Positions 3,747 through 52,918 of a stretch of 64,000 bases of DNA are shown here, one piece after another. The stretch comes from Rubrivivax sp. (GTDB lineage Bacteria; Pseudomonadota; Gammaproteobacteria; Burkholderiales; Burkholderiaceae_C), in NCBI GenBank assembly GCA_044225625.1, contig JBGAII010000003.1, forward strand, positions 11,234 to 75,233. The letters run 5' to 3'. Made by a program: the position numbers and the translations under genes. Under the pieces are notes generated by a model. The model did no database searches. It was not told the origin of the DNA and was given only the letters and a program-made list of their open reading frames with translations. Positions within the stretch are counted from its first letter, which is position 1. The number at the start of each line of letters is the position of its first letter.

Positions 3747-4972
3747 CGCGCATCCGTTTCGACCGGCTCGGCGGATTCGCCGGCCTGCGCAGCGCCCTGC
3801 TCCGCATGCTGCTCGCCCTGACCCTGGCCGGCTGCGGCGGCGGTGCGGGTCTTGCGGGCGGCGACGGCGGCTCCGGCGGCGTGGGCAGCGGCGGCACCGG
3901 CACCTTCGCGGTCGGGCCGATCAGTGGCTATGGCTCGATCCTGGTCAACGGCATTCGCTACGACCTCGGCCAGCTGAGTGCAGCGCCGCGCGACGACGAC
4001 GACGGTGAACGTGCCGTCGCGACACTGCAGCTGGGCACGGTGGTTCGCGTCGAAGCCGGGCCGATCGACTTCGGTGCCAGCCCGCCGCGTGCGGTGGCCC
4101 GGACGGTGCGCGTCAGCAGCGAGGTGGTGGGCCCGGTCGAGTCCGTGGTCGACGACGCCGCCGGCCGCACGCTGCGCGTCGCAGGGCAGACCGTGCGCAT
4201 CCAGGCAGGCACCACCGTGCTCGATGAACGTCTGTCCGCCGGCGCACCGGCGCCCGGCGACTGGATCGAGGTCTACGGTGCCATCGACGGCGCGGTGTCA
4301 CCGGCACGCATCGTGGCCACGCGGATCGAGCCGCATGCGGCCGATGGCGCGCGGGTGCGCGGCACCGTCACCGACATCGGCACATCGGCCTTGCGCATCG
4401 GCAGCGGCGTCTACGGCTTCGGCGGCGGCACGCCGCCCGCGGGCGCGGCGATGGGCAGCCTGCTGCAGTTGCGCCTGCAAGGCAGCGCCGGCGAAGGCTG
4501 GCAGGTGGCCACCGTGGCCGATGCGCCGACGGCGCCGGCCGAGGCGGCGGCCGCCCATGTCGAGGGACGGGTGACGAGCATCGTTTCGTCCGACCGCTTC
4601 GTGGTCGATGACCTCGTCGTGGATGCCGGCGGTCTGTCGACCGCCGGGCTGACCCTCGGCCGCAGGGTCGTGGTGGAAGGCCCGATCCGCGCCGGTGTAC
4701 TGCACGCCGAGTCGCTGCAGTTCAAGAGCGACGACGACAGTCCCGGGCAGGCGGAGCCCTACGAGTTCCACGGCACCATCGCCACCGCCGACACGGTGGC
4801 TGCGACCTTCAGCCTGAGCGGCCGCAGTGAACTGTTCCGTCTGGGCCCCGGCACGCGCTATGAAGGCGGTGGTGCCGCCAGAGCGGTCGCGGGCGTACGA
4901 CTGGAGATGCGGGGCACGCTCAACGCCGACGGCCGCAGCGTCGACGTGGTCTTCGTCCACTTCGAGGACTAG
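3743..4972 (+). CDS. Lipoprotein with a Gly-rich linker and repeated beta-rich domains (DUF5666-like).
   Basis: Internal Met (MTRIRFDRLGG...) preceded by an AGGACG RBS. Lipobox LTLAGC. Shows the repeated V..V.G.V..V motif organisation. The listed ORF start at 3569 is an upstream GTG extension. Confidence 0.6.
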   Translation: MTRIRFDRLGGFAGLRSALLRMLLALTLAGCGGGAGLAGGDGGSGGVGSGGTGTFAVGPISGYGSILVNGIRYDLGQLSAAPRDDDDGERAVATLQLGTVVRVEAGPIDFGASPPRAVARTVRVSSEVVGPVESVVDDAAGRTLRVAGQTVRIQAGTTVLDERLSAGAPAPGDWIEVYGAIDGAVSPARIVATRIEPHAADGARVRGTVTDIGTSALRIGSGVYGFGGGTPPAGAAMGSLLQLRLQGSAGEGWQVATVADAPTAPAEAAAAHVEGRVTSIVSSDRFVVDDLVVDAGGLSTAGLTLGRRVVVEGPIRAGVLHAESLQFKSDDDSPGQAEPYEFHGTIATADTVAATFSLSGRSELFRLGPGTRYEGGGAARAVAGVRLEMRGTLNADGRSVDVVFVHFED

Positions 4973-39309: not shown

Positions 39310-39714
39310 TCAGGAATCGCCGTCGACCAGGTTGCGCAACTGCTGGCGCAGCGCCTTGCGCCCGGCGACATTGGTGGCACGATAGGCCGCCAACGCGAGG
39401 TCGAGGAACGCGGCCTCCGCTGCGGACGGACCCGCAGCCGCATGCATCACGTCGAGCCATCCGGCCGGCTGTCCGCAGCAGTGCTCGATTTGCCGCGCGA
39501 GCTTGTCGCCGATGGGACGTGAGGCCTTGACCTGGCTCCACATGCTGGGCGAGATCTGGAGCGCAGCGGCGAACGCCTGTTCGAGGCCCTTGGGCCCGGC
39601 ACCCGCGGCGAACGCCTTCTCGGCGTGTTCGTGGAACAGCCGCAGCACGTTCTGGCGACGGGTGACGGTGACGTTGCTCACGCGGTGTGGCCTCGCTGCA
39701 ACAAGGGACGCCAC
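39310..39714 (-). CDS. Hypothetical small protein, possibly an HTH DNA-binding protein.
   Basis: 134 aa ORF of reasonable composition, with a Cro/CI-like stretch LQISPSMWSQVKASRPIGDKLARQIE. The start codon is uncertain. Confidence 0.35.
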   Translation of the reverse strand: MASLVAARPHRVSNVTVTRRQNVLRLFHEHAEKAFAAGAGPKGLEQAFAAALQISPSMWSQVKASRPIGDKLARQIEHCCGQPAGWLDVMHAAAGPSAAEAAFLDLALAAYRATNVAGRKALRQQLRNLVDGDS

Positions 39715-39731
39715 GCATTGTCGCAGAGGGG

Positions 39732-39760
39732 TTGACGGTGTCGTAAAGAGTCTTTACAGT
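39732..39760 (+). promoter_or_regulatory. Sigma-70-like promoter: TTGACG - 17 nt - TACAGT.
   Basis: Read directly in the low-GC intergenic stretch. It points into a region with no convincing ORF. Confidence 0.4.
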
Positions 39761-39766
39761 CCGCCT

Positions 39767-40038
39767 CCTTGCAATGCAATCTGCATCGTTCGACTGAAGC
39801 TGTGCCCATGACCATTTCGTTCATCGCCCTGCCAACGCGCCCCGAAACGGGTGCGTCCGCGCTCGTTCGCGCGGCGCGCTGTTTTGACGCGCCGAAGCGC
39901 GCGTGCAATGGCGTGCATCGGTTTTATGGACAGCGGTTGGATTGCAACACCCCGGGAAGGCGGCTCGTGTAAACGCAGCCGCCCACGCTCTGTTCGACAG
40001 AGGCCCGGAGACCGCAAGGTTCCGGGCCTTTTTGTTTT
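39767..40038 (+). ncRNA. Candidate small RNA of about 270 nt, bounded by a consensus-like promoter and an intrinsic terminator. Alternatively a leaderless mRNA for a 54-67 aa peptide.
   Basis: The promoter at 39732-39760 and the terminator at 40002-40038 bracket a GC-rich, stem-rich segment. The only ORF (39769..39972) lacks an RBS. Confidence 0.35.
40002..40038 (+). terminator. Rho-independent terminator: GGCCCGGA-loop-TCCGGGCC followed by TTTTTGTTTT.
   Basis: An 8 bp GC stem with an 11 nt loop and a T-tract, read directly. Confidence 0.6.
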
Positions 40039-40494
40039 GCGCATGACCTACGCACGGCAACGTGCGTGACGCGATTGGAAGGATCGCGCCGCGGTGGCAA
40101 CAGGATCGCGGACGCTCTTTGACAATTCGGACGAGGCAACGGCCGGCGCAAGCCGCGCCGCCCGTTGCCTCCACTTCGGGTGTGCCCATGCACTCCGCGA
40201 CCAGGCCACAGGGTGCTGCTGGTCCGGGATGTGCGTGGCCCGCAGCCGGGCCCCGTGCAGCGAAAACACGACGTCCGTCGGGACGCTCGCGCGTGGGCAC
40301 AGCCGAAGTGGAGCAACGGATCGCCGCATGCGCGATCCACGAAATCGCCGCCAAGCCCGAGGCTTGCCGGCAACAGCATCTGTCGTGAAAGGCAAACGCT
40401 CACAGGCCGGGGATTCGCAAGTCCCGCCGGTGCGCGGCAACCGGGTCAGCCCGTCGTTGTCGCGTATGCCGCGCTGCCGGAAGCGATCGATACC

Positions 40495-40553
40495 GGTGAC
40501 ACAGTGGTCTGCCGCAGTGCGCTGGCCAGGTTCGATTCCTGGTGTCACCGCCC
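40495..40553 (+). ncRNA. tRNA-mimic mini-element.
   Basis: A perfect 7 bp acceptor-like stem (GGTGACA/TGTCACC) flanks a 24 nt spacer. A perfect T-arm (CCAGG-TTCGATT-CCTGG) follows, then G and CCC. It is too short to hold D and anticodon arms, so it is not a complete tRNA gene. Confidence 0.35.
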
Positions 40554-40623
40554 CTGGATAGCTCAGTGGGTAGAGCAACGACCTCATCAGTCGTGTGTCG
40601 CGGGTTCGAGTCCGCTCCAAAGC
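40552..40623 (+). tRNA. tRNA-like gene with CAU anticodon (Met/Ile2-type), degenerate and possibly a pseudogene or tRNA mimic.
   Basis: Canonical D-arm (TAGCTCAGTGGGTAGAGC). Perfect anticodon stem ACGAC/GTCGT with loop CTCATCA. T-loop GGTTCGAGTCC. However, the acceptor stem pairs at only 5 of 7 positions (CCCTGGA vs TCCAAAG), the T-stem is 4 bp with an 8-nt loop, position 37 is C, and no CCA is encoded. Confidence 0.4.
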
Positions 40624-40871
40624 CTTGTAAAGGGCCGCAAGGCCAAACGCCGGACGTGCGGCGCGGAACGTTGTACCTGCGCGCGCATCAGCGGCGCCCG
40701 TCCGTGCGGCGAGCACGCGAAGGTTTCGCGGCCACGGCCAGCGGAAGCGGTTCGCAGTCTGAACGCCGCCAACGCGCACCGGGGTTCCGGGCGTTCGCAC
40801 TCGTCGTCCGCGGTCGCCGCTGTAACGGCAACTATTTGTCAACACGCTTCCAACCAGGAAGGAGAACTCCC

Positions 40872-42008
40872 GTGAAGATCAAGCGTGTCACCGTGAAGAA
40901 GAACGAACGTGGAATCCTGCTGCGCAACGGCGACTTCGAGCGCGTGCTGCGCCCGGGCGCGTACTGGCTGTTCACGCTCGTCGACGAGCTGACGGTCGAG
41001 CGCTACGCACTCGAGCAGCCGGCGTTCATCGGCCCGCTGGCCGATTACCTGATGGCGGCCGAGCCGGCCGTCGTCGCGGCGGATTTCGTGCGTGTCGATC
41101 TCGGCGAAACCGAAGTCGGGCTGCGCACCGAGAACGGCACGCTGGTCGAGGTGCTGGCGCCGGGCACCCGTCGCCTGTACTGGAAGGGTCTCGTCGACGT
41201 GCGCGTCGAGGTGATCGACATCGGTGCGACGGCCGCGGTGTCGCCGGCGATCGCGTCGCGCTTCGTGCAGACGCAACTGCGTTCGCGCTCGGTGGCGGGG
41301 CTCGCGGGCGTGGCGCAGGTGCAGGTGCCGGAGTACGGCGCGGCGCTGCTGTGGATCGACGGCAAGGTCGAGCGGCTGCTCGAGCCGGGCTCGTATGCGT
41401 TCTGGAAGTTCAACCGGAACGTGGTCGTGGAGCTGGTGGACCTGCGTCTGCAGGCGCTCGAAGTGACCGGGCAGGAGATCCTGACGCGCGACAAGGTCGC
41501 GCTGCGGATCAACCTGTCGGCCACCTGGCGCTTCACGGACGTGCTGAAGGCCTACCGCGAACTCGCCAAGCCGGCGGAACAGCTGTATCGCGAGCTGCAG
41601 TTCGGACTGCGTTCGGCGGTCGGGACGCGTTCGCTCGACGAGCTGCTGGAGAACAAGACGGTGATCGACGACGTCGTGATCGCGCAGGCGACCGCCAAGC
41701 TCGCAGGCTATGGCCTGAAGCTCGAAGGCGTTGGCGTGAAGGACATCGTGCTCCCGGGCGAGATGAAGACCATCCTCGCCCAGGTGGTCGAGGCCGGCAA
41801 GTCGGCCGAGGCCAACGTGATCCGTCGTCGCGAGGAAACCGCCGCGACGCGTTCGCTGCTCAACACGGCCAAGGTGATGGAGGACAACCCCGTCGCGCTG
41901 CGCCTGAAGGAGCTGGAAACGCTGGAGCGCGTGGCCGAGCGCATCGACCGGATCTCCGTGTACGGGGGCCTGGACCAGGTGCTGAACGGCCTCGTGAAGC
42001 TGCGCTGA
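40872..42008 (+). CDS. Slipin / SPFH (band-7) domain protein.
   Basis: GTG start (VKIKRVTVKKNERGILLRNGDFERVLRPGAYWLF) with a GGAAGGAGAA RBS. SPFH core and a C-terminal coiled-coil region. Confidence 0.8.
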   Translation: MKIKRVTVKKNERGILLRNGDFERVLRPGAYWLFTLVDELTVERYALEQPAFIGPLADYLMAAEPAVVAADFVRVDLGETEVGLRTENGTLVEVLAPGTRRLYWKGLVDVRVEVIDIGATAAVSPAIASRFVQTQLRSRSVAGLAGVAQVQVPEYGAALLWIDGKVERLLEPGSYAFWKFNRNVVVELVDLRLQALEVTGQEILTRDKVALRINLSATWRFTDVLKAYRELAKPAEQLYRELQFGLRSAVGTRSLDELLENKTVIDDVVIAQATAKLAGYGLKLEGVGVKDIVLPGEMKTILAQVVEAGKSAEANVIRRREETAATRSLLNTAKVMEDNPVALRLKELETLERVAERIDRISVYGGLDQVLNGLVKLR

Positions 42009-42105
42009 GCCGCTTTGAGGCGATTGTCATGCACCGTAAGGTGCACGTTGGGGGAGGCTGCATTGGCAGCCTCCCCTGGAATGTGAGAATGGTGATGGAA
42101 ACTGA

Positions 42106-43326
42106 ATGATGGAAACGAACTGGATTCATGAAGACGTGGGCGGCGGCGTGCCGCTCAAGATGTGGACGCGCGGCGTGCCCATCGAGGACGAGGCGAAGCG
42201 CCAGCTGCAGAACACGGCGCGCCTGCCGATCGTCTTCCGCCACATCGCTGCGATGCCCGATGTGCATTTCGGCATCGGCGCGACCGTCGGCTCGGTGATT
42301 CCCACCGTGAAGGCGATCATTCCCGCCGCGGTCGGCGTGGACATCGGCTGCGGCATGATGGCCTGCAAGACGACGCTGACGGCCGAGGACCTGCCCGACA
42401 ACCTGGCGCCGCTGCGCGCGGCCATCGAGCGCGCGGTGCCGCATGGCCGCACGCCCGGCAGCCGCGACCCCGGTGCGTGGCAAACGCCGCCCGGTACGGT
42501 TGGTACGGCATGGGCGCAACTCGAGCCGGCGTTCACGGAGCTCTGCCGCGACTTCCCCAAGCTGGCCAAGACCAACCACATCCAGCACCTGGGCACGCTG
42601 GGCAGCGGCAACCATTTCATCGAGGTCTGCCTCGACGAGGCGGGCGCCGTGTGGTTCATGCTGCATTCGGGCTCGCGCGGCGTGGGCAACGCGATCGGGA
42701 CGATGTTCATCGAGCTCGCGAAGCAGGACGCGCTGCGTCACGAGGCGCACCTGCCGGATCGCGACCTGGCTTATTTCGAGGAAGGCAGCCGTCATTTCGA
42801 CGACTACGTCCGCGCGGTGAGCTGGGCCCAGCGCTTCGCGGCGATCAACCGCGAGGTGATGATGCGGCGCGTGATCGAGGCGACGAAGACGGTGCTGCGC
42901 AAGAACTTCCAGACGCACGTCGAGGCGGTGAACTGTCACCACAACTACGTGCAGAAGGAGCGCCACTTCGAAACCGACGTCTACGTCACCCGTAAGGGTG
43001 CGGTCAACGCGAAGGCGGGTCAGCTGGGCATCATCCCGGGCAGCATGGGCGCGCGCAGCTACATCGTGCGCGGCAAGGGCAACCGCGAGTCGTTCGAGTC
43101 CTGCTCGCACGGCGCGGGCCGCGCCATGAGCCGCGGCGAAGCCAAGCGCCGCTTCACGCTGGCCGACCATCGCGCCGCCACCGAAGGCGTCGAATGCCGG
43201 AAGGACAAGGACGTCATCGACGAGACGCCCGCGGCCTACAAGGACATCGACGCCGTGATGGAGGCGCAACGCGACCTGGTCGACGTCGTGCACACGTTGA
43301 AGCAGGTGGTGTGCGTGAAGGGTTAG
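42106..43326 (+). CDS. rtcB: RNA-splicing ligase RtcB (3'-phosphate/5'-OH RNA ligase).
   Basis: 406 aa with diagnostic RtcB motifs throughout: MPDVHFGIGATVGSV, GVDIGCGM, GSGNHFIE, NCHHNY, GSMGARSYIV and SCSHGAGR. Confidence 0.9.
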   Translation: MMETNWIHEDVGGGVPLKMWTRGVPIEDEAKRQLQNTARLPIVFRHIAAMPDVHFGIGATVGSVIPTVKAIIPAAVGVDIGCGMMACKTTLTAEDLPDNLAPLRAAIERAVPHGRTPGSRDPGAWQTPPGTVGTAWAQLEPAFTELCRDFPKLAKTNHIQHLGTLGSGNHFIEVCLDEAGAVWFMLHSGSRGVGNAIGTMFIELAKQDALRHEAHLPDRDLAYFEEGSRHFDDYVRAVSWAQRFAAINREVMMRRVIEATKTVLRKNFQTHVEAVNCHHNYVQKERHFETDVYVTRKGAVNAKAGQLGIIPGSMGARSYIVRGKGNRESFESCSHGAGRAMSRGEAKRRFTLADHRAATEGVECRKDKDVIDETPAAYKDIDAVMEAQRDLVDVVHTLKQVVCVKG

Positions 43327-43338
43327 GCAGCAACGAAG

Positions 43339-43368
43339 GCGCCCGGCGAGAGCCGGGCGCTTTTTTTT
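43339..43368 (+). terminator. Rho-independent terminator after rtcB: GCGCCCGGC-GAGA-GCCGGGCGC followed by TTTTTTTT.
   Basis: A 9 bp GC stem, tetraloop and an 8-T tract, read directly. Confidence 0.65.
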
Positions 43369-43419
43369 CGTCGAGTCGCCAAGTCCGGCGTCATGCGCGG
43401 GCGGCCGCCCGCCATCTGT

Positions 43420-44745
43420 TCAAGGCACCAGCCGCCGCCCGGGCAAGGCCAGCTGCGGCAGCAGCTTGGGCACGTCGCGCCGCGCGAAGCGCCGAATGCG
43501 CCAACCGTTGACCAGCGCATAGACGATCATCCACAGCGGCAGCGACAACAGCGCCATCAGGAAGCCGCCCACGACAGGCGCCACCATCTTGTCCCGCAGC
43601 AGATAGGTGGAACTGCCCAGTTGCCAGGCGAGCACCAGCAGCGGGACGAAGATCCAGCCGCGCATCGACAGGATGCCGCCGAGCGCATCGTCGATGATCG
43701 TCGCGCGTTCCGCCCGCGTATGGTTGCGGAACAGCACCCATTCGCCTTCCTTGCGCAGGCGCCGGCTGGCGATCAGGCCGGAGATCGAGTCCCCGTTCGC
43801 GGCGCGCAACTCGGCGCCGGTCACGTGGACCGGTAGCGACCCGTTCGCAGTCACGAGGTCGAACGCCTCGTGGTGGCTCGACGACGACTGGCTGGTGCGG
43901 CTCCAGACCCGGCCCCACTGGTCGATCCGCTCGGTGATCGTGGTCGTGGTTTCCGTCCATACGCGGTAGTTGCTGATGGTGCCGGACCGCGCAGCGAGCG
44001 CGTAGCGCCGCAAGCCGGCGCGGATGTACGGCGGCTCGCCGGTCACGTCGAACGGCATCAGCTCGCGCGCGAGCAACAGCAGCAACAGCACGCCGAAGAT
44101 CGCGCAGATCTGCACGGTGGCCTGGCGCTCCAGCGGCGACATCTGCGACCACGCCGACGGCTTGTAGTTCGGGTCCTGCGCCGCGATCCGCTGGCGCTCG
44201 TTCTCGCGCAGCGCCTGGAGGTTCGCCGCGTCGGCGCCCATCGTGTCGAGGTAGAGTTTGTGGAAGCCGGGCGAGAAGTAGCGCTTCAGCAGGTCGTCGC
44301 GCAGTTCGTCGCTGTTCTGGTACGCGTTGAGCCCGCCGACCCATTTCGCGCGCGGCGAGTCCATCGTGTCCTGTTTGGGATCGAACGTGGCGAACGCCTG
44401 TTTCTGCAGGCGCCCCGAGGCTGCGGCGTAGTCGTCGAGCAGCTTGCGCTCGCCGGGCGCGTAGTCGTTGTGGAAGCGACGATTGCCGGCGAGCTCCTGG
44501 ATCATCCGGCGCAGCCGGTTGAGCGCACCGGCCTGGTGTTGCAGCGTGTCCAGCGCGTCCGTCCCCTTCGCGTCGGCGATCACGCGCTCCGCGGTGGGGA
44601 ATTCGGCGAGATACCGCGGGTCCGGGGTGGCGGTGCCGTTGCCCGCCGGCTGCGCGGCGGCGCCGAAGGCGATCGAGAGCAAGGCGGCAAGCAGCAACAG
44701 GCAGCGCGCGGCAGCCCGCGCCGCGGGCAAGGACGATGGAAGCAC
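43420..44745 (-). CDS. Hypothetical membrane-anchored protein with an N-terminal signal peptide and C-terminal TM segments.
   Basis: 441 aa ORF. Starts MLPSSLPAARAAARCLLLLAALLSIAFGAAAQP. Two to three hydrophobic helices near the C-terminus. No recognisable domain. Confidence 0.5.
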   Translation of the reverse strand: MLPSSLPAARAAARCLLLLAALLSIAFGAAAQPAGNGTATPDPRYLAEFPTAERVIADAKGTDALDTLQHQAGALNRLRRMIQELAGNRRFHNDYAPGERKLLDDYAAASGRLQKQAFATFDPKQDTMDSPRAKWVGGLNAYQNSDELRDDLLKRYFSPGFHKLYLDTMGADAANLQALRENERQRIAAQDPNYKPSAWSQMSPLERQATVQICAIFGVLLLLLLARELMPFDVTGEPPYIRAGLRRYALAARSGTISNYRVWTETTTTITERIDQWGRVWSRTSQSSSSHHEAFDLVTANGSLPVHVTGAELRAANGDSISGLIASRRLRKEGEWVLFRNHTRAERATIIDDALGGILSMRGWIFVPLLVLAWQLGSSTYLLRDKMVAPVVGGFLMALLSLPLWMIVYALVNGWRIRRFARRDVPKLLPQLALPGRRLVP

Positions 44746-45696: not shown

Positions 45697-45856
45697 CGTG
45701 GGTGTGCGGGACCGCCGGACGGACCCGGTTCGTTGCGCGGGCGCCCATTGTAAGGGACAGGCAGCCCGGTCCGGTGGCACATGAATTGCGGTTCCGCGGG
45801 GAACCTGCGAAACTGGAAAGCCCCTGCGCAGTACAACGCAAGGCCTTGATTTACCG

Positions 45857-46795
45857 ATGGCTGTCACCAACCAATCCCTGCCGGCGAACTATCAGTTGCT
45901 GAACTACCGGATCGACCGGCAGATCAGCCGCGGCGGCTTCTCGATCGTCTACCGCGCGTACGACGAGACGGGCGCGCCCGTCGCCATCAAGGAATACCTG
46001 CCGTCGTCGCTGGTGCTGCGCACGGAAGGCGACATCGTGCGGGCGTCGTCGGCCGAGAACCTCACGTCGTTCCGCTACGGGATGAAGTGCTTCTTCGAGG
46101 AAGGCCGCGCGCTCGCCAAGATCAACCATCCCAACGTCGTGCGCGTGTTGAATTTCTTCCGCGCCAACGAGACGGTGTACATGGTGATGCGCTACGAGCG
46201 CGGGCGCACGCTGCAGCAGCAGATCCAGATGCGCCAGGACCAGATGTCCGAGCGCTTCGTCCGCCACGTGTTCATGCACCTGCTGAACGGCCTGCGCGAA
46301 GTGCACACGCACAAGCTTTTGCACCTCGACATCAAGCCGGCCAACATTTATCTCCGCACCGACGGGACGCCGGTGCTGCTGGACTTCGGCGCCGCGCGGC
46401 AAACGCTCACCAACACGCGCGCGAAGTTGGCGCCGATGTACACGCCGGGCTTCGCGGCGCCGGAGCAGTATCGGGATCCGGACCGCCTCGGGCCCTGGAC
46501 GGACGTGTATGGCGCGGGTGCGTCGATGTTCGCGTGCCTCGCGGCGTTCGCGCCGCAGGCGGCCGACGCGCGCCTGCAGGAAGACCACCTGGTGTCGGCC
46601 AAGAAGATCTGGGCGGGGCAGTACTCGGACAACATCCTCGAGGTGATCGACTGGTGCCTGCGGCTCGACCCGCTGGAGCGGCCGCAGTCGGTTTTCGCGC
46701 TGCAGAAGGCGATCCGCGACATCCCCACCAAGAAGCGCAAGCTCTCGTTCCTGGGCAACGTGAAGAAACTCCTGTTCACCGAAATCGGGGCATAG
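45857..46795 (+). CDS. Serine/threonine protein kinase (Hanks-type), cytosolic with no sensor domain.
   Basis: GxGxxS-like loop (ISRGGFSIVYRAYD), VAIKEY lysine, catalytic HLDIKPANIYL, DFG (LLDFGAA) and APE. Confidence 0.85.
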   Translation: MAVTNQSLPANYQLLNYRIDRQISRGGFSIVYRAYDETGAPVAIKEYLPSSLVLRTEGDIVRASSAENLTSFRYGMKCFFEEGRALAKINHPNVVRVLNFFRANETVYMVMRYERGRTLQQQIQMRQDQMSERFVRHVFMHLLNGLREVHTHKLLHLDIKPANIYLRTDGTPVLLDFGAARQTLTNTRAKLAPMYTPGFAAPEQYRDPDRLGPWTDVYGAGASMFACLAAFAPQAADARLQEDHLVSAKKIWAGQYSDNILEVIDWCLRLDPLERPQSVFALQKAIRDIPTKKRKLSFLGNVKKLLFTEIGA

Positions 46796-52468: not shown

Positions 52469-52918
52469 ATGTCATCGAAGCAGAAGCTGTCCCAAGCGCT
52501 CGCAGCCGTCCTCCCGGCCGGCGCGGTGGGTGCATCCGTCGTGCTGGCGCTGGCGCCCGCGCAGGCGGCGACGGTGTCGTCCGTGACCACCGCATCGACG
52601 CCGGCCACGCCGGCCACCGTTGCCGAGCGGCTCGAGGCGATCCGCGCCGGCGTTTCCGCGGCAATCGTCGCGCCGGCTCCCGCTGCGGCGGATGAAGCCG
52701 CCAGCGAGACCGCCGACGAAACGGCGGAAGGCGGTGCGTTCATCCCGACGTGGTGGGGCAACGGCGGCTGGGGCCGCTTCGGCATCGGCTGGGGCAATGG
52801 CGGCTGGCACAACTGGGGCAACGGCTGGCACAACTGGGGGAACGGTTGGCACAACTGGGGCAACGGCGGCTGGAACAACTGGCACAACGGCTGGAACAAC
52901 TTCTGGCACAACGCCTGA
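52469..52918 (+). CDS. Secreted Gly/Trp/Asn/His-rich tandem-repeat protein, a candidate precursor for the adjacent radical SAM/SPASM enzyme (GRRM-like system).
   Basis: Starts MSSKQKLSQALAAVLPAGAVGASVVLALAPAQA (signal peptide) after an AGGAG RBS. A Thr/Ala/Pro linker follows, then WWGNGGWGRFGIGWGNGGWHNWGNGWHNWGNGWHNWGNGGWNNWHNGWNNFWHNA. This tail is encoded by three near-identical 21 bp direct DNA repeats (GGCTGGCACAACTGGGGCAAC). Confidence 0.7.
   Translation: MSSKQKLSQALAAVLPAGAVGASVVLALAPAQAATVSSVTTASTPATPATVAERLEAIRAGVSAAIVAPAPAAADEAASETADETAEGGAFIPTWWGNGGWGRFGIGWGNGGWHNWGNGWHNWGNGWHNWGNGGWNNWHNGWNNFWHNA

Follow-up and report, generated by a model that had tools for sequence, protein, structure and literature searches.

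Two tandem tRNA-like elements, A (positions 40495-40553) and B (40552-40623), lie on the forward strand upstream of the genes for a slipin and the RNA ligase RtcB in the window analysed here, a 64,000-nucleotide (64-kb) stretch of Rubrivivax sp. DNA. They are read here as modules of one slipin-rtcB leader RNA of ∼450 nt, an RNA partner of slipin-RtcB from which A is probably excised, and a probability of about 0.6 is given to this reading. Comparative sequence evidence clearly indicates that the leader RNA is conserved and functional.

The slipin-rtcB operon

The slipin, a Band-7/SPFH protein of 378 aa recognized by domain search, is encoded at 40872-42008 on the forward strand. A longer open reading frame spans 40542-42008, but the Band_7/SPFH domain occupies only its C-terminal part, and the real start is the GTG at 40872, served by the ribosome-binding site GGAAGGAG at 40857-64. 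Residues 185-365 of the slipin resemble the stomatin core, and the N-terminal ∼185 aa are without a match to solved structures and, by eye, without an obvious membrane segment; a model built from a shallow alignment reached a pLDDT of 43 and a pTM of 0.27. Stomatin forms 16-mer cages in recent structures. RtcB (406 aa, 42106-43326, forward strand; Pfam RtcB, E = 4.7e-130) follows, and an intrinsic terminator on the same strand, a 13-bp stem and then a T run at 43335-43368, ends the operon.

The left boundary of the locus is marked in the sequence by a terminator-like hairpin and T run at 40000-40040 on the forward strand, which closes the upstream unit, and a sub-threshold match to ctRNA_p42d is just that hairpin. 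Both elements fall within a non-coding stretch of ∼830 nt. B ends 248 nt before the GTG at 40872, so the initial annotation's placement of the pair immediately upstream of slipin does not hold, and this gap is itself a conserved structured domain. No terminator was found between the leader and the slipin ribosome-binding site, and the leader is contiguous with the mRNA. The neighbors, an SDR and a TRAP-type solute-binding protein upstream and YicC and a Ser/Thr kinase downstream, are unrelated to the operon.

Searches of the surroundings for further components were negative. Homologs of RtcR, RtcA, HTH, and HNH proteins were absent from the 64-kb window by tblastn, and no Ro60/TROVE domain occurred among the neighboring open reading frames scanned. 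ARAGORN found no tmRNA, and no Rfam tmRNA match was obtained in 39500-44500 even at E ≤ 10. The only candidate for a sigma-54 promoter of the window leader was a match with two mismatches at 40095, at chance level for the window (88 matches versus 88 expected), and a sigma-70 scan gave nothing upstream of the window leader.

Conservation and covariation of the tandem pair

The first hints came from the Eleftheria terrae locus described below and from chromosome 2 of Burkholderia cenocepacia, on which a slipin homolog is preceded by a minihelix and then a tRNA-like element, the pair itself being preceded by a sigma-54-type promoter. Relatives were drawn from a species collection as the best 80 of at least 524 stretches encoding this slipin, with 62-85% identity; these 80 loci are mostly from Burkholderiales, with Rhodocyclales, a Silanimonas metagenome-assembled genome (MAG), and a MAG labeled Synechococcus in addition. 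Nearly all 80 contain two T-loop motifs ∼74 nt apart, located 250-450 nt before the slipin start.

A structure for A and B was set by hand on 17 well-aligned copies (a MAFFT-based seed), which became the source of a covariance model, R1. In this seed alignment, pairing extends to 97.3% of cells, against 49% or less in slid controls, and compensatory changes occur at 18 of 33 pairs. R1 finds the tandem pair once per locus, at 64-141 bits and in several families, in 76 of the 80 slipin loci (the best 80 of at least 524). At a cut-off of at least 64 bits, the matches sit 300-450 nt ahead of the slipin start, and ordinary tandem tRNA genes in the 80 loci remain below 64 bits. The window copy scores 116 bits (E ∼3e-28) and is the single match in the 64-kb window.

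Among 75 distinct copies, 97.3% of cells are paired versus 41-48% in slid controls, with 25 of 33 pairs compensatory and none of 500 shuffles reaching the observed values; because this alignment was fitted to R1, its pairing is inflated somewhat, and the MAFFT seed and RNAalifold agree with it in direction. Compensatory changes occur in every helix of A and B except the invariant D stem of B, GCUC/GAGC. A or B has been lost or remodeled in four slipin loci (L024, L055, L067, and L079), and thus neither module is absolutely required. Viral contigs yielded one slipin homolog, whose upstream region is cut off. A search for viral leader candidates gave at least 120 matches to GCCGGTG...CATGCCGC, which are attributed to chance, with A and B recognized by R1 in none of the 80 matching loci listed.

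Of the three origins proposed in the initial annotation, namely tRNA-mimic ncRNAs tied to the RNA-repair module, a decaying tRNA gene, and an att-site scar, the first is supported by a covarying pair that keeps its place in the operon in 76 of 80 loci, many of which have an RtcR/sigma-54 promoter upstream of it. The reading of A and B as a decaying tRNA gene or as a scar of mobile-element integration could draw on the imperfect form of B and on some local loss, since the window is without the tRNA array and HNH gene of many relatives. Both versions are rejected on the conservation of the pair, which reflects purifying selection with compensatory changes across several families and a fixed position inside the operon; no integrase occurred among the open reading frames scanned within ∼5 kb. 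The probability left to decay or an att scar is next to nil.

Element A, an acceptor/T-arm minihelix

By sequence, covariance model, and comparative alignment, element A is a tRNA-like minihelix. A perfect 7-bp acceptor stem (GGTGACA at 40495-40501 with TGTCACC at 40543-40549) encloses a 24-nt spacer (40502-40525), which in the window copy holds a GG-containing linker and a weak internal hairpin, and a perfect T arm at 40526-40542 (CCAGG at 40526-30, TTCGATT at 40531-37, and CCTGG at 40538-42). The 3′ end consists of a discriminator G at 40550 and then CCC at 40551-53 (GCCC). The linker and internal hairpin apart, the sequence agrees in these respects with the initial description.

Across the family, a short GG linker and one small hairpin, with loops often of GCAA, GAAA, or UUCG type, replace the D and anticodon arms. 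The acceptor measures 6-7 bp in every copy, and T-arm anchoring reveals 54 different 5′ strands among 69 distinct copies; all seven of its pairs show compensatory changes among the 75 distinct sequences. For these comparisons, the 5′ halves of A were aligned by T-arm anchoring and then with the covariance model, MAFFT having been out of register between 6-bp and 7-bp acceptors. The 75-copy alignment contains no conserved G-U at the third acceptor pair, and A therefore has no tmRNA-like alanine identity.

An N-CCA sequence stands at the exact tRNA offset after the acceptor 3′ strand in 56 of 73 distinct copies. Copies without CCA mostly keep NCC with the last base altered, as in the GCCC of the window. 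A CCA-ended minihelix is a classical minimal substrate of RNase P. The layout of the family is acceptor-N-CCA-C-UGGA, in which the UGGA of B begins one base after the CCA; the 2-nt overlap between A and B is confined to formal tRNA-model coordinates.

The best Rfam matches to A are all sub-threshold, at 22.4 bits for tRNA-Sec and 22.1 bits for mascRNA. Single-sequence folding was uninformative, with z = -1.9 for A and z = 0.0 for B, and structural support for the elements therefore comes from comparative data.

Element B, a tRNA-like cloverleaf

[quoted passage not shown] Its short acceptor (UGGA at 40555-58 with UCCA at 40616-19) is followed by a D arm (40561-76), by an anticodon arm whose loop is CUCAUCA (40578-94), and by a T arm from which 1 nt is deleted (40600-15). 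ARAGORN reports 40552-40624 as tRNA-Met (cat). The Rfam model RF00005 scores B at 40.6 bits, above its gathering score of 29, with E = 4e-5 over the whole window, and B is the sole Rfam match at or above gathering score in the 64-kb window.

These two calls are what favors B as a working CAU tRNA gene (elongator Met, initiator, or Ile2), with A as an unrelated hairpin. Under the tRNA model, however, five of seven acceptor pairs form, the other two being non-canonical, and the T loop or stem lacks one base, which leaves the T loop shortened; in the family, the acceptor has 3-5 bp, which covary (UGGA/UCCA versus UUCG/CGAA). No 3′ CCA is present in the window, and no single-stranded NCCA follows the B acceptor anywhere in the family, unlike in the neighboring array tRNA genes of relatives' genomes, 194 of 201 of which encode CCA. 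The window loop CUCAUCA, found in eight loci, places a pyrimidine (C) at position 37. Scores of 36-56 bits are obtained by B homologs on the Rfam tRNA model, and the elbow of B is preserved in an invariant D arm, UAGCUCAG...GG...AGAGC, and the T arm GGUUCGAnUCC.

The anticodon loop varies far more. It has 7 nt, with many different triplets, in 37 of 75 copies and is replaced by a GNRA tetraloop in 19 of 75, the rest being of other sizes; the tetraloop copies belong to Comamonadaceae and Burkholderia. Triplets at the orthologous position include CAU, GAU, CGU, GAA, UUU, and others. In relatives, ARAGORN misses the second element or assigns it a different anticodon nearly every time, with calls of Met, Thr, Ile, Val, Phe, Lys, Asn, Glu, Ala, Cys, Arg, Leu, and "stop", and some orthologs receive malformed anticodons of 2 or 4 nt. 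In score and cloverleaf, B thus resembles a canonical tRNA, but it departs from one in lacking the 7-bp acceptor with CCA and the conserved anticodon with a purine at position 37. Together with the conservation of A alongside B, these features make a working tRNA gene extremely improbable.

Judged by its sequence features, B imitates the structure of a tRNA and does not decode. The initial annotation had called it degenerate and allowed for a transcription error of its own. The imperfections (five of seven acceptor pairs, base loss in the T arm, and no CCA) are real. B is indeed called a tRNA, which is half of the outcome that was to have exposed such an error, but the score is low and no misreading was involved. 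The short acceptor and the absent CCA are family traits, so the label "degenerate" is misleading. In genome annotation, the tRNA-Met that standard tools report at B should be left out of the count of decoding tRNAs.

The diversity of loops is relevant to another explanation, in which B and hairpins resembling anticodon stem-loops act as bait for tRNA-targeting ribotoxins (anticodon nucleases), so that real tRNAs are protected, or so that fragments with 2′,3′-cyclic phosphates feed the CARF sensor of RtcR and are religated by RtcB. Strong variation of the loops between species, with tRNA-like CU-NNN-AA forms among them, fits such a decoy or sensor, as does an extra separate hairpin with a 5-bp stem and a 7-nt loop, similar to an anticodon stem-loop, in 17 loci. 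The GNRA tetraloop of Comamonadaceae and Burkholderia, however, cannot mimic an anticodon, and element A and the 5′ and 3′ domains described below are left unexplained. Evidence from the promoters and neighbors of the operon also bears on this explanation and is given with the locus types; on balance, it is unlikely.

Architecture of the leader RNA

Beyond what the initial annotation described, A and B prove to be modules of a much larger conserved RNA. RNAalifold applied to 24 Sphaerotilaceae leaders and mapped to the window delimits a leader of ∼450 nt at 40378-40829 on the forward strand, and in the conservation profile the conserved region extends from ∼40378 to the slipin ribosome-binding site. 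The consensus contains 119 pairs, of which 56 are compensatory; 96.0% of cells are paired versus 36-47% in slid controls, and none of 500 shuffles matches this. The window copy forms nearly all of the predicted helices. These close each domain locally, and no pairing of the two ends of the RNA is predicted.

The 5′ domain (40378-40491, forward strand), supported by RNAalifold, by pair counts with controls, and by the conservation profile, is a closed three-way junction. RNAalifold places two stacked closing helices, P1 (40378-86/40483-91) and P2 (40391-99/40471-78), below a hairpin at 40405-28 and a long one at 40429-70, all on the forward strand, and the near-invariant motifs of the domain are GCUCACAGG, GCCGGUG, and CAUGCCGC. 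Downstream of A and B, RNAalifold and pair counts identify a conserved GNRA-tetraloop hairpin at 40633-40644 on the forward strand, which reads GGCC-GCAA-GGCC in the window versus a family consensus of GGUC-GAAA-GACC; its one compensatory change, U-A to C-G, is in the window copy. The 3′ domain (40649-40829, forward strand) is predicted by RNAalifold as a rod of ∼180 nt made of helices 13-20, most with compensatory changes. It is closed by GCCG at 40649-52 with CGGC at 40826-29, carries a side hairpin at 40656-88, and continues as a long interrupted helix up to an apical stem at 40747-69. No Rfam family (Rfam 15) covers any of the parts of the leader.

The window leader belongs to a Sphaerotilaceae-like sequence group and looks like a slightly eroded or reduced member of the family, given the change of CCA to CCC, the base lost from the T arm of B, and the weak inner hairpin of A. 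Slipin and RtcB are intact in the window despite these RNA lesions.

The position of the leader within the 5′ region of the mRNA, with no terminator before the ribosome-binding site, would suit a purely cis-acting element equally well. In such a case, the slipin-rtcB mRNA would carry the tRNA-like modules as operators or processing sites with no free ncRNA function, for instance for feedback by RtcB or slipin on their own leader or for RNase P cleavage that sets mRNA stability. A precedent is ThrRS, which binds a tRNA-like operator for feedback. Also in line with a cis-acting element, the 3′ domain stops ∼40 nt before the Shine-Dalgarno sequence and the leader would start at the promoter in loci with a sigma-54 promoter. 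Against it, RNAalifold on the 24 leaders predicts no conserved helix that sequesters the Shine-Dalgarno sequence, and the lone predicted contact, between the CC of A and the Shine-Dalgarno GG, is invariant on both sides and hence unsupported. Known protein operators need far less than a leader of this size (∼450 nt), with its 119 conserved pairs, its two full tRNA mimics, and its encoded CCA, and related RtcB operons have free-standing Y RNAs in the same slot. A purely cis-acting leader is accordingly rated as doubtful, with a low but appreciable probability.

Locus types among relatives

Loci of the first type (Type 1) occur in Acidovorax, Delftia, Hydrogenophaga, Rhodocyclales, Burkholderia, and the MAG labeled Synechococcus, and their sigma-54 promoter (TGGCACGCATCTGGCA or similar) is found 490-700 nt ahead of slipin. 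In ∼35 of the best 80 of at least 524 loci, this promoter directly precedes the 5′ domain, a position that predicts a transcript start at the 5′ domain, at P1. In the same set of the best 80 of at least 524, an RtcR homolog is present in 32 loci and an RtcA homolog in 22; one locus, L044, combines a divergent RtcR gene with RtcA after RtcB.

Loci of the second type (Type 2) are those of Sphaerotilaceae and have no sigma-54 promoter. In 37 loci of this type, a gene for a 191-aa HNH endonuclease ends just before the leader, and in 27 loci arrays of 3-19 canonical tRNA genes are found further upstream. The window has a Sphaerotilaceae-like leader but neither the tRNA array nor the HNH gene.

These arrangements provide further points for and against the decoy or sensor explanation. 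tRNA fragments with a terminal cyclic phosphate activate RtcR, and YrlA has been suggested as a possible competitive inhibitor of an anticodon nuclease (PMC7790460); tRNA arrays, which adjoin the operon in many relatives, have been proposed as RNase sponges in cyanobacteria (PMC8421152). All of this is favorable to bait RNAs, yet an RNA encoded downstream of an RtcR-dependent promoter cannot be the primary sensor.

Other rtcB loci have other RNAs in place of the leader, or none that was recognized. At the slipin-free locus of Eleftheria terrae, a perfect sigma-54 promoter is separated from rtcB by a tRNA-like element that ends in CACCA and matches tmRNA ends at a score under the gathering threshold. 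The most similar rtcB in Alphaproteobacteria, at 72% DNA identity, is that of Novosphingobium pTHN, where the order is Ro60, four tandem YrlA-like RNAs, RtcB, and RtcA. The YrlA-like RNAs score 63.8, 40.3, 35.7, and 33.4 bits, and the first of these served as a positive control. The slot filled in the window by the RNA containing A and B and then slipin is filled in Novosphingobium by Ro60 and then Y RNAs. Upstream of rtcB on a Tistrella plasmid, no tRNA-like or Y RNA match was found.

Proposed function of the leader

The leader is most likely, we infer, a cofactor or scaffold partner of the slipin-RtcB repair module. It would form the 5′ part of the slipin-rtcB transcript, and its tRNA-like surfaces may be recognized by the tRNA ligase RtcB, by an oligomer of the stomatin-type slipin, or by both, which would parallel the pairing of Y RNA and Ro60 in other RtcB operons. 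A partner role with slipin-RtcB, the role already put forward for the b7a-tRNA, is favored by the Ro60/Y RNA slot of Novosphingobium, by the tRNA-like element of Eleftheria terrae, and by the stomatin-like core of the slipin. Element A, resembling a minimal RNase P substrate, would probably be cut at its 5′ end and then possibly trimmed or repaired to CCA, and such a cleavage would detach the 5′ domain from the downstream part of the transcript.

A bolder version, which is tentative and rather less probable than the partner role in general, takes the ∼450-nt RNA as hitherto undescribed and as the RNA subunit of a soluble particle of a stomatin cage and RtcB, from which RNase P would release a CCA-ended A with a role of its own. 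If this were true, the particle would correspond in bacteria to Ro-Y RNA or vault-vtRNA particles, and the released A would be a CCA-ended small RNA acting in RNA repair or its control.

The substrates of bacterial RtcB are still poorly known, as are its cofactors, and a leader with two tRNA mimics offers testable handles, including the assignment of each leader module to the protein that would bind it, action of RNase P and the CCA-adding enzyme, and the need of the RNA for repair or induction. The leader family also deserves an Rfam model of its own.

Comparison with known systems

The finding is only partly new. A tRNA-like partner of Band-7 proteins and RtcB was already predicted in 2016 by Burroughs and Aravind as the b7a-tRNA, according to the secondary description in a 2018 preprint by Wang et al. 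(10.1101/312249), which states that this RNA "strongly resembles an authentic tRNA", lists it as unvalidated at that date, and relays a proposed role as a cofactor analogous to, and functionally redundant with, YrlA. Compared through that description, B matches the b7a-tRNA type in shape and context, being a tRNA-like RNA beside a Band-7 gene followed by RtcB on the same strand, a layout present in 76 of 80 loci. The difference is that the secondary description has a single tRNA-like RNA (10.1101/312249). No Rfam 15 family exists for b7a-tRNA, and that preprint was the only description obtained in the literature searched. Neither Rfam nor the literature found contains element A with its CCA end or the ∼450-nt architecture, but the primary b7a-tRNA paper may cover them.

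YrlA (RF02553) is likewise an operon-encoded ncRNA beside rtcB under RtcR/sigma-54 control, as is the leader in many relatives, and, with T and D arms in its tRNA-like module, is paired with a ring- or cage-forming protein, Ro60. The leader differs in that it consists of two separately closed tRNA-like units and other domains, whereas YrlA has one permuted tRNA-like domain on a Ro-binding stem, and in the absence of Ro60 among the window open reading frames scanned near the operon, a YrlA gene being expected to lie no more than about 4 kb from a Ro60 (rsr) gene. The YrlA model matches the window at 18.4 bits against a gathering score of 69 (E = 3.3) over 40526-40576, which covers the T arm of A and the D arm of B. 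Chen et al. flagged T-arm/D-arm matches from dimeric tRNAs as a type of YrlA false positive, and with no Ro60 among the neighboring open reading frames scanned, identity with YrlA was rejected and the match treated as an artefact of tandem tRNA-like units. The likening to YrlA in the initial annotation therefore survives as an analogy and not as a family assignment.

Element A can be compared with mascRNA (MALAT1/MEN-beta) and the tRNA-like domain of tmRNA, which it resembles in having an acceptor and a T arm with no normal D or anticodon arms and, in most copies, a CCA end. It differs from them in being sub-threshold on all models, without a tag reading frame or a conserved G3-U70 pair, and both bacterial and operon-internal. 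Many Sphaerotilaceae loci, with the order tRNA array, HNH, leader, slipin, and rtcB, also resemble the cyanobacterial L-array/HNH/rtcB loci, although the papers on those arrays (PMC8421152) make no mention of slipin or a tRNA-like leader and the window is without array and HNH. Three systems would replace one another beside the same RtcB clade, namely Ro60 with Y RNAs, slipin with the leader RNA, and tRNA arrays with HNH.

Leader RNA domains flanking the tRNA-like elements

The tRNA-like minihelix (element A, 40495-40553) and the tRNA-like cloverleaf (element B, 40552-40623) lie within a leader RNA totalling ~450 nt, whose non-coding flanks are also conserved and supported by covariation. Upstream of the two elements is a three-way-junction domain (40378-40491); the downstream part (40633-40829) comprises a GNRA hairpin followed by a rod of 180 nt. 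No Rfam family matches either flanking domain.

In seventeen related loci, element B and the GNRA hairpin are separated by an additional hairpin (for example, at ~3711-3731 in L015, ~895-915 in L004, and ~3752-3772 in L012). Its stem is 5 bp long and its 7-nt loop follows the pattern CU-NNN-AA, so that it resembles a free-standing anticodon stem-loop; the window has no such hairpin. In a few slipin loci (L024, L055, L060, L067, and L079), elements A and B are remodelled, with a B lacking its D-arm, a single T arm, or plain hairpins replacing both elements; these loci still have the 5′ motifs as well as the GNRA hairpin.

Other rtcB operons

In the Novosphingobium pTHN operon (L204, 518-5721), Ro60 is followed by four tandem YrlA-like RNAs (2192-2939), RtcB, and RtcA, and this RtcB has 72% identity to that of the window at the DNA level. 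On an Eleftheria terrae plasmid (L002, 3643-3974), a perfect sigma-54 promoter (TGGCACgcgtgTTGC) precedes a tRNA-like element that sits directly upstream of rtcB, and the locus has no slipin gene. The tRNA-like element is 87 nt long (3866-3952), has a CACCA end, and aligns in Rfam to both ends of tmRNA.

Other features of the window

The sole exact match in the window to the sigma-54 consensus TGGCAC-N5-TTGC is at 45775-45789 (+); an ORF for a Ser/Thr protein kinase (45857-46795) starts ~70 nt downstream of it. ARAGORN called a 90-nt tRNA-Gly (tcc) at 43714-43803 (+), which is probably a false positive because it falls within long minus-strand ORFs that have no Pfam match and because it has no Rfam tRNA match even at E ≤ 10. 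A tandem repeat at 52754-52901 comprises ~4.7 copies of a 21-nt unit (CGGCTGGCACAACTGGGGCAA); as this period equals seven codons, it probably encodes a Gly/Trp/Asn-rich repeat.

Genes upstream of the leader RNA

An ORF of 108 aa (40062-40388, +) terminates within the start of the 5′ domain. It occupies the place of an HNH endonuclease gene found in relatives, has no Pfam match and no detectable similarity to that gene, and may be a remnant or spurious. The window contains no homologue of the HNH gene and no tRNA array. Long same-strand arrays of up to 19 canonical, CCA-encoding tRNA genes sit 1.2-3.9 kb upstream of slipin in related loci, including L064 (615-2872), L015 (1141-2819), L045 (1-2711), L006 (1332-2406), and ~23 others. 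Between array and leader RNA is the conserved HNH gene, encoding 191 aa (2901-3476 in L045), a position common to 37 loci. This gene recalls the HNH gene adjoining cyanobacterial L-arrays, which are co-regulated with rtcB.
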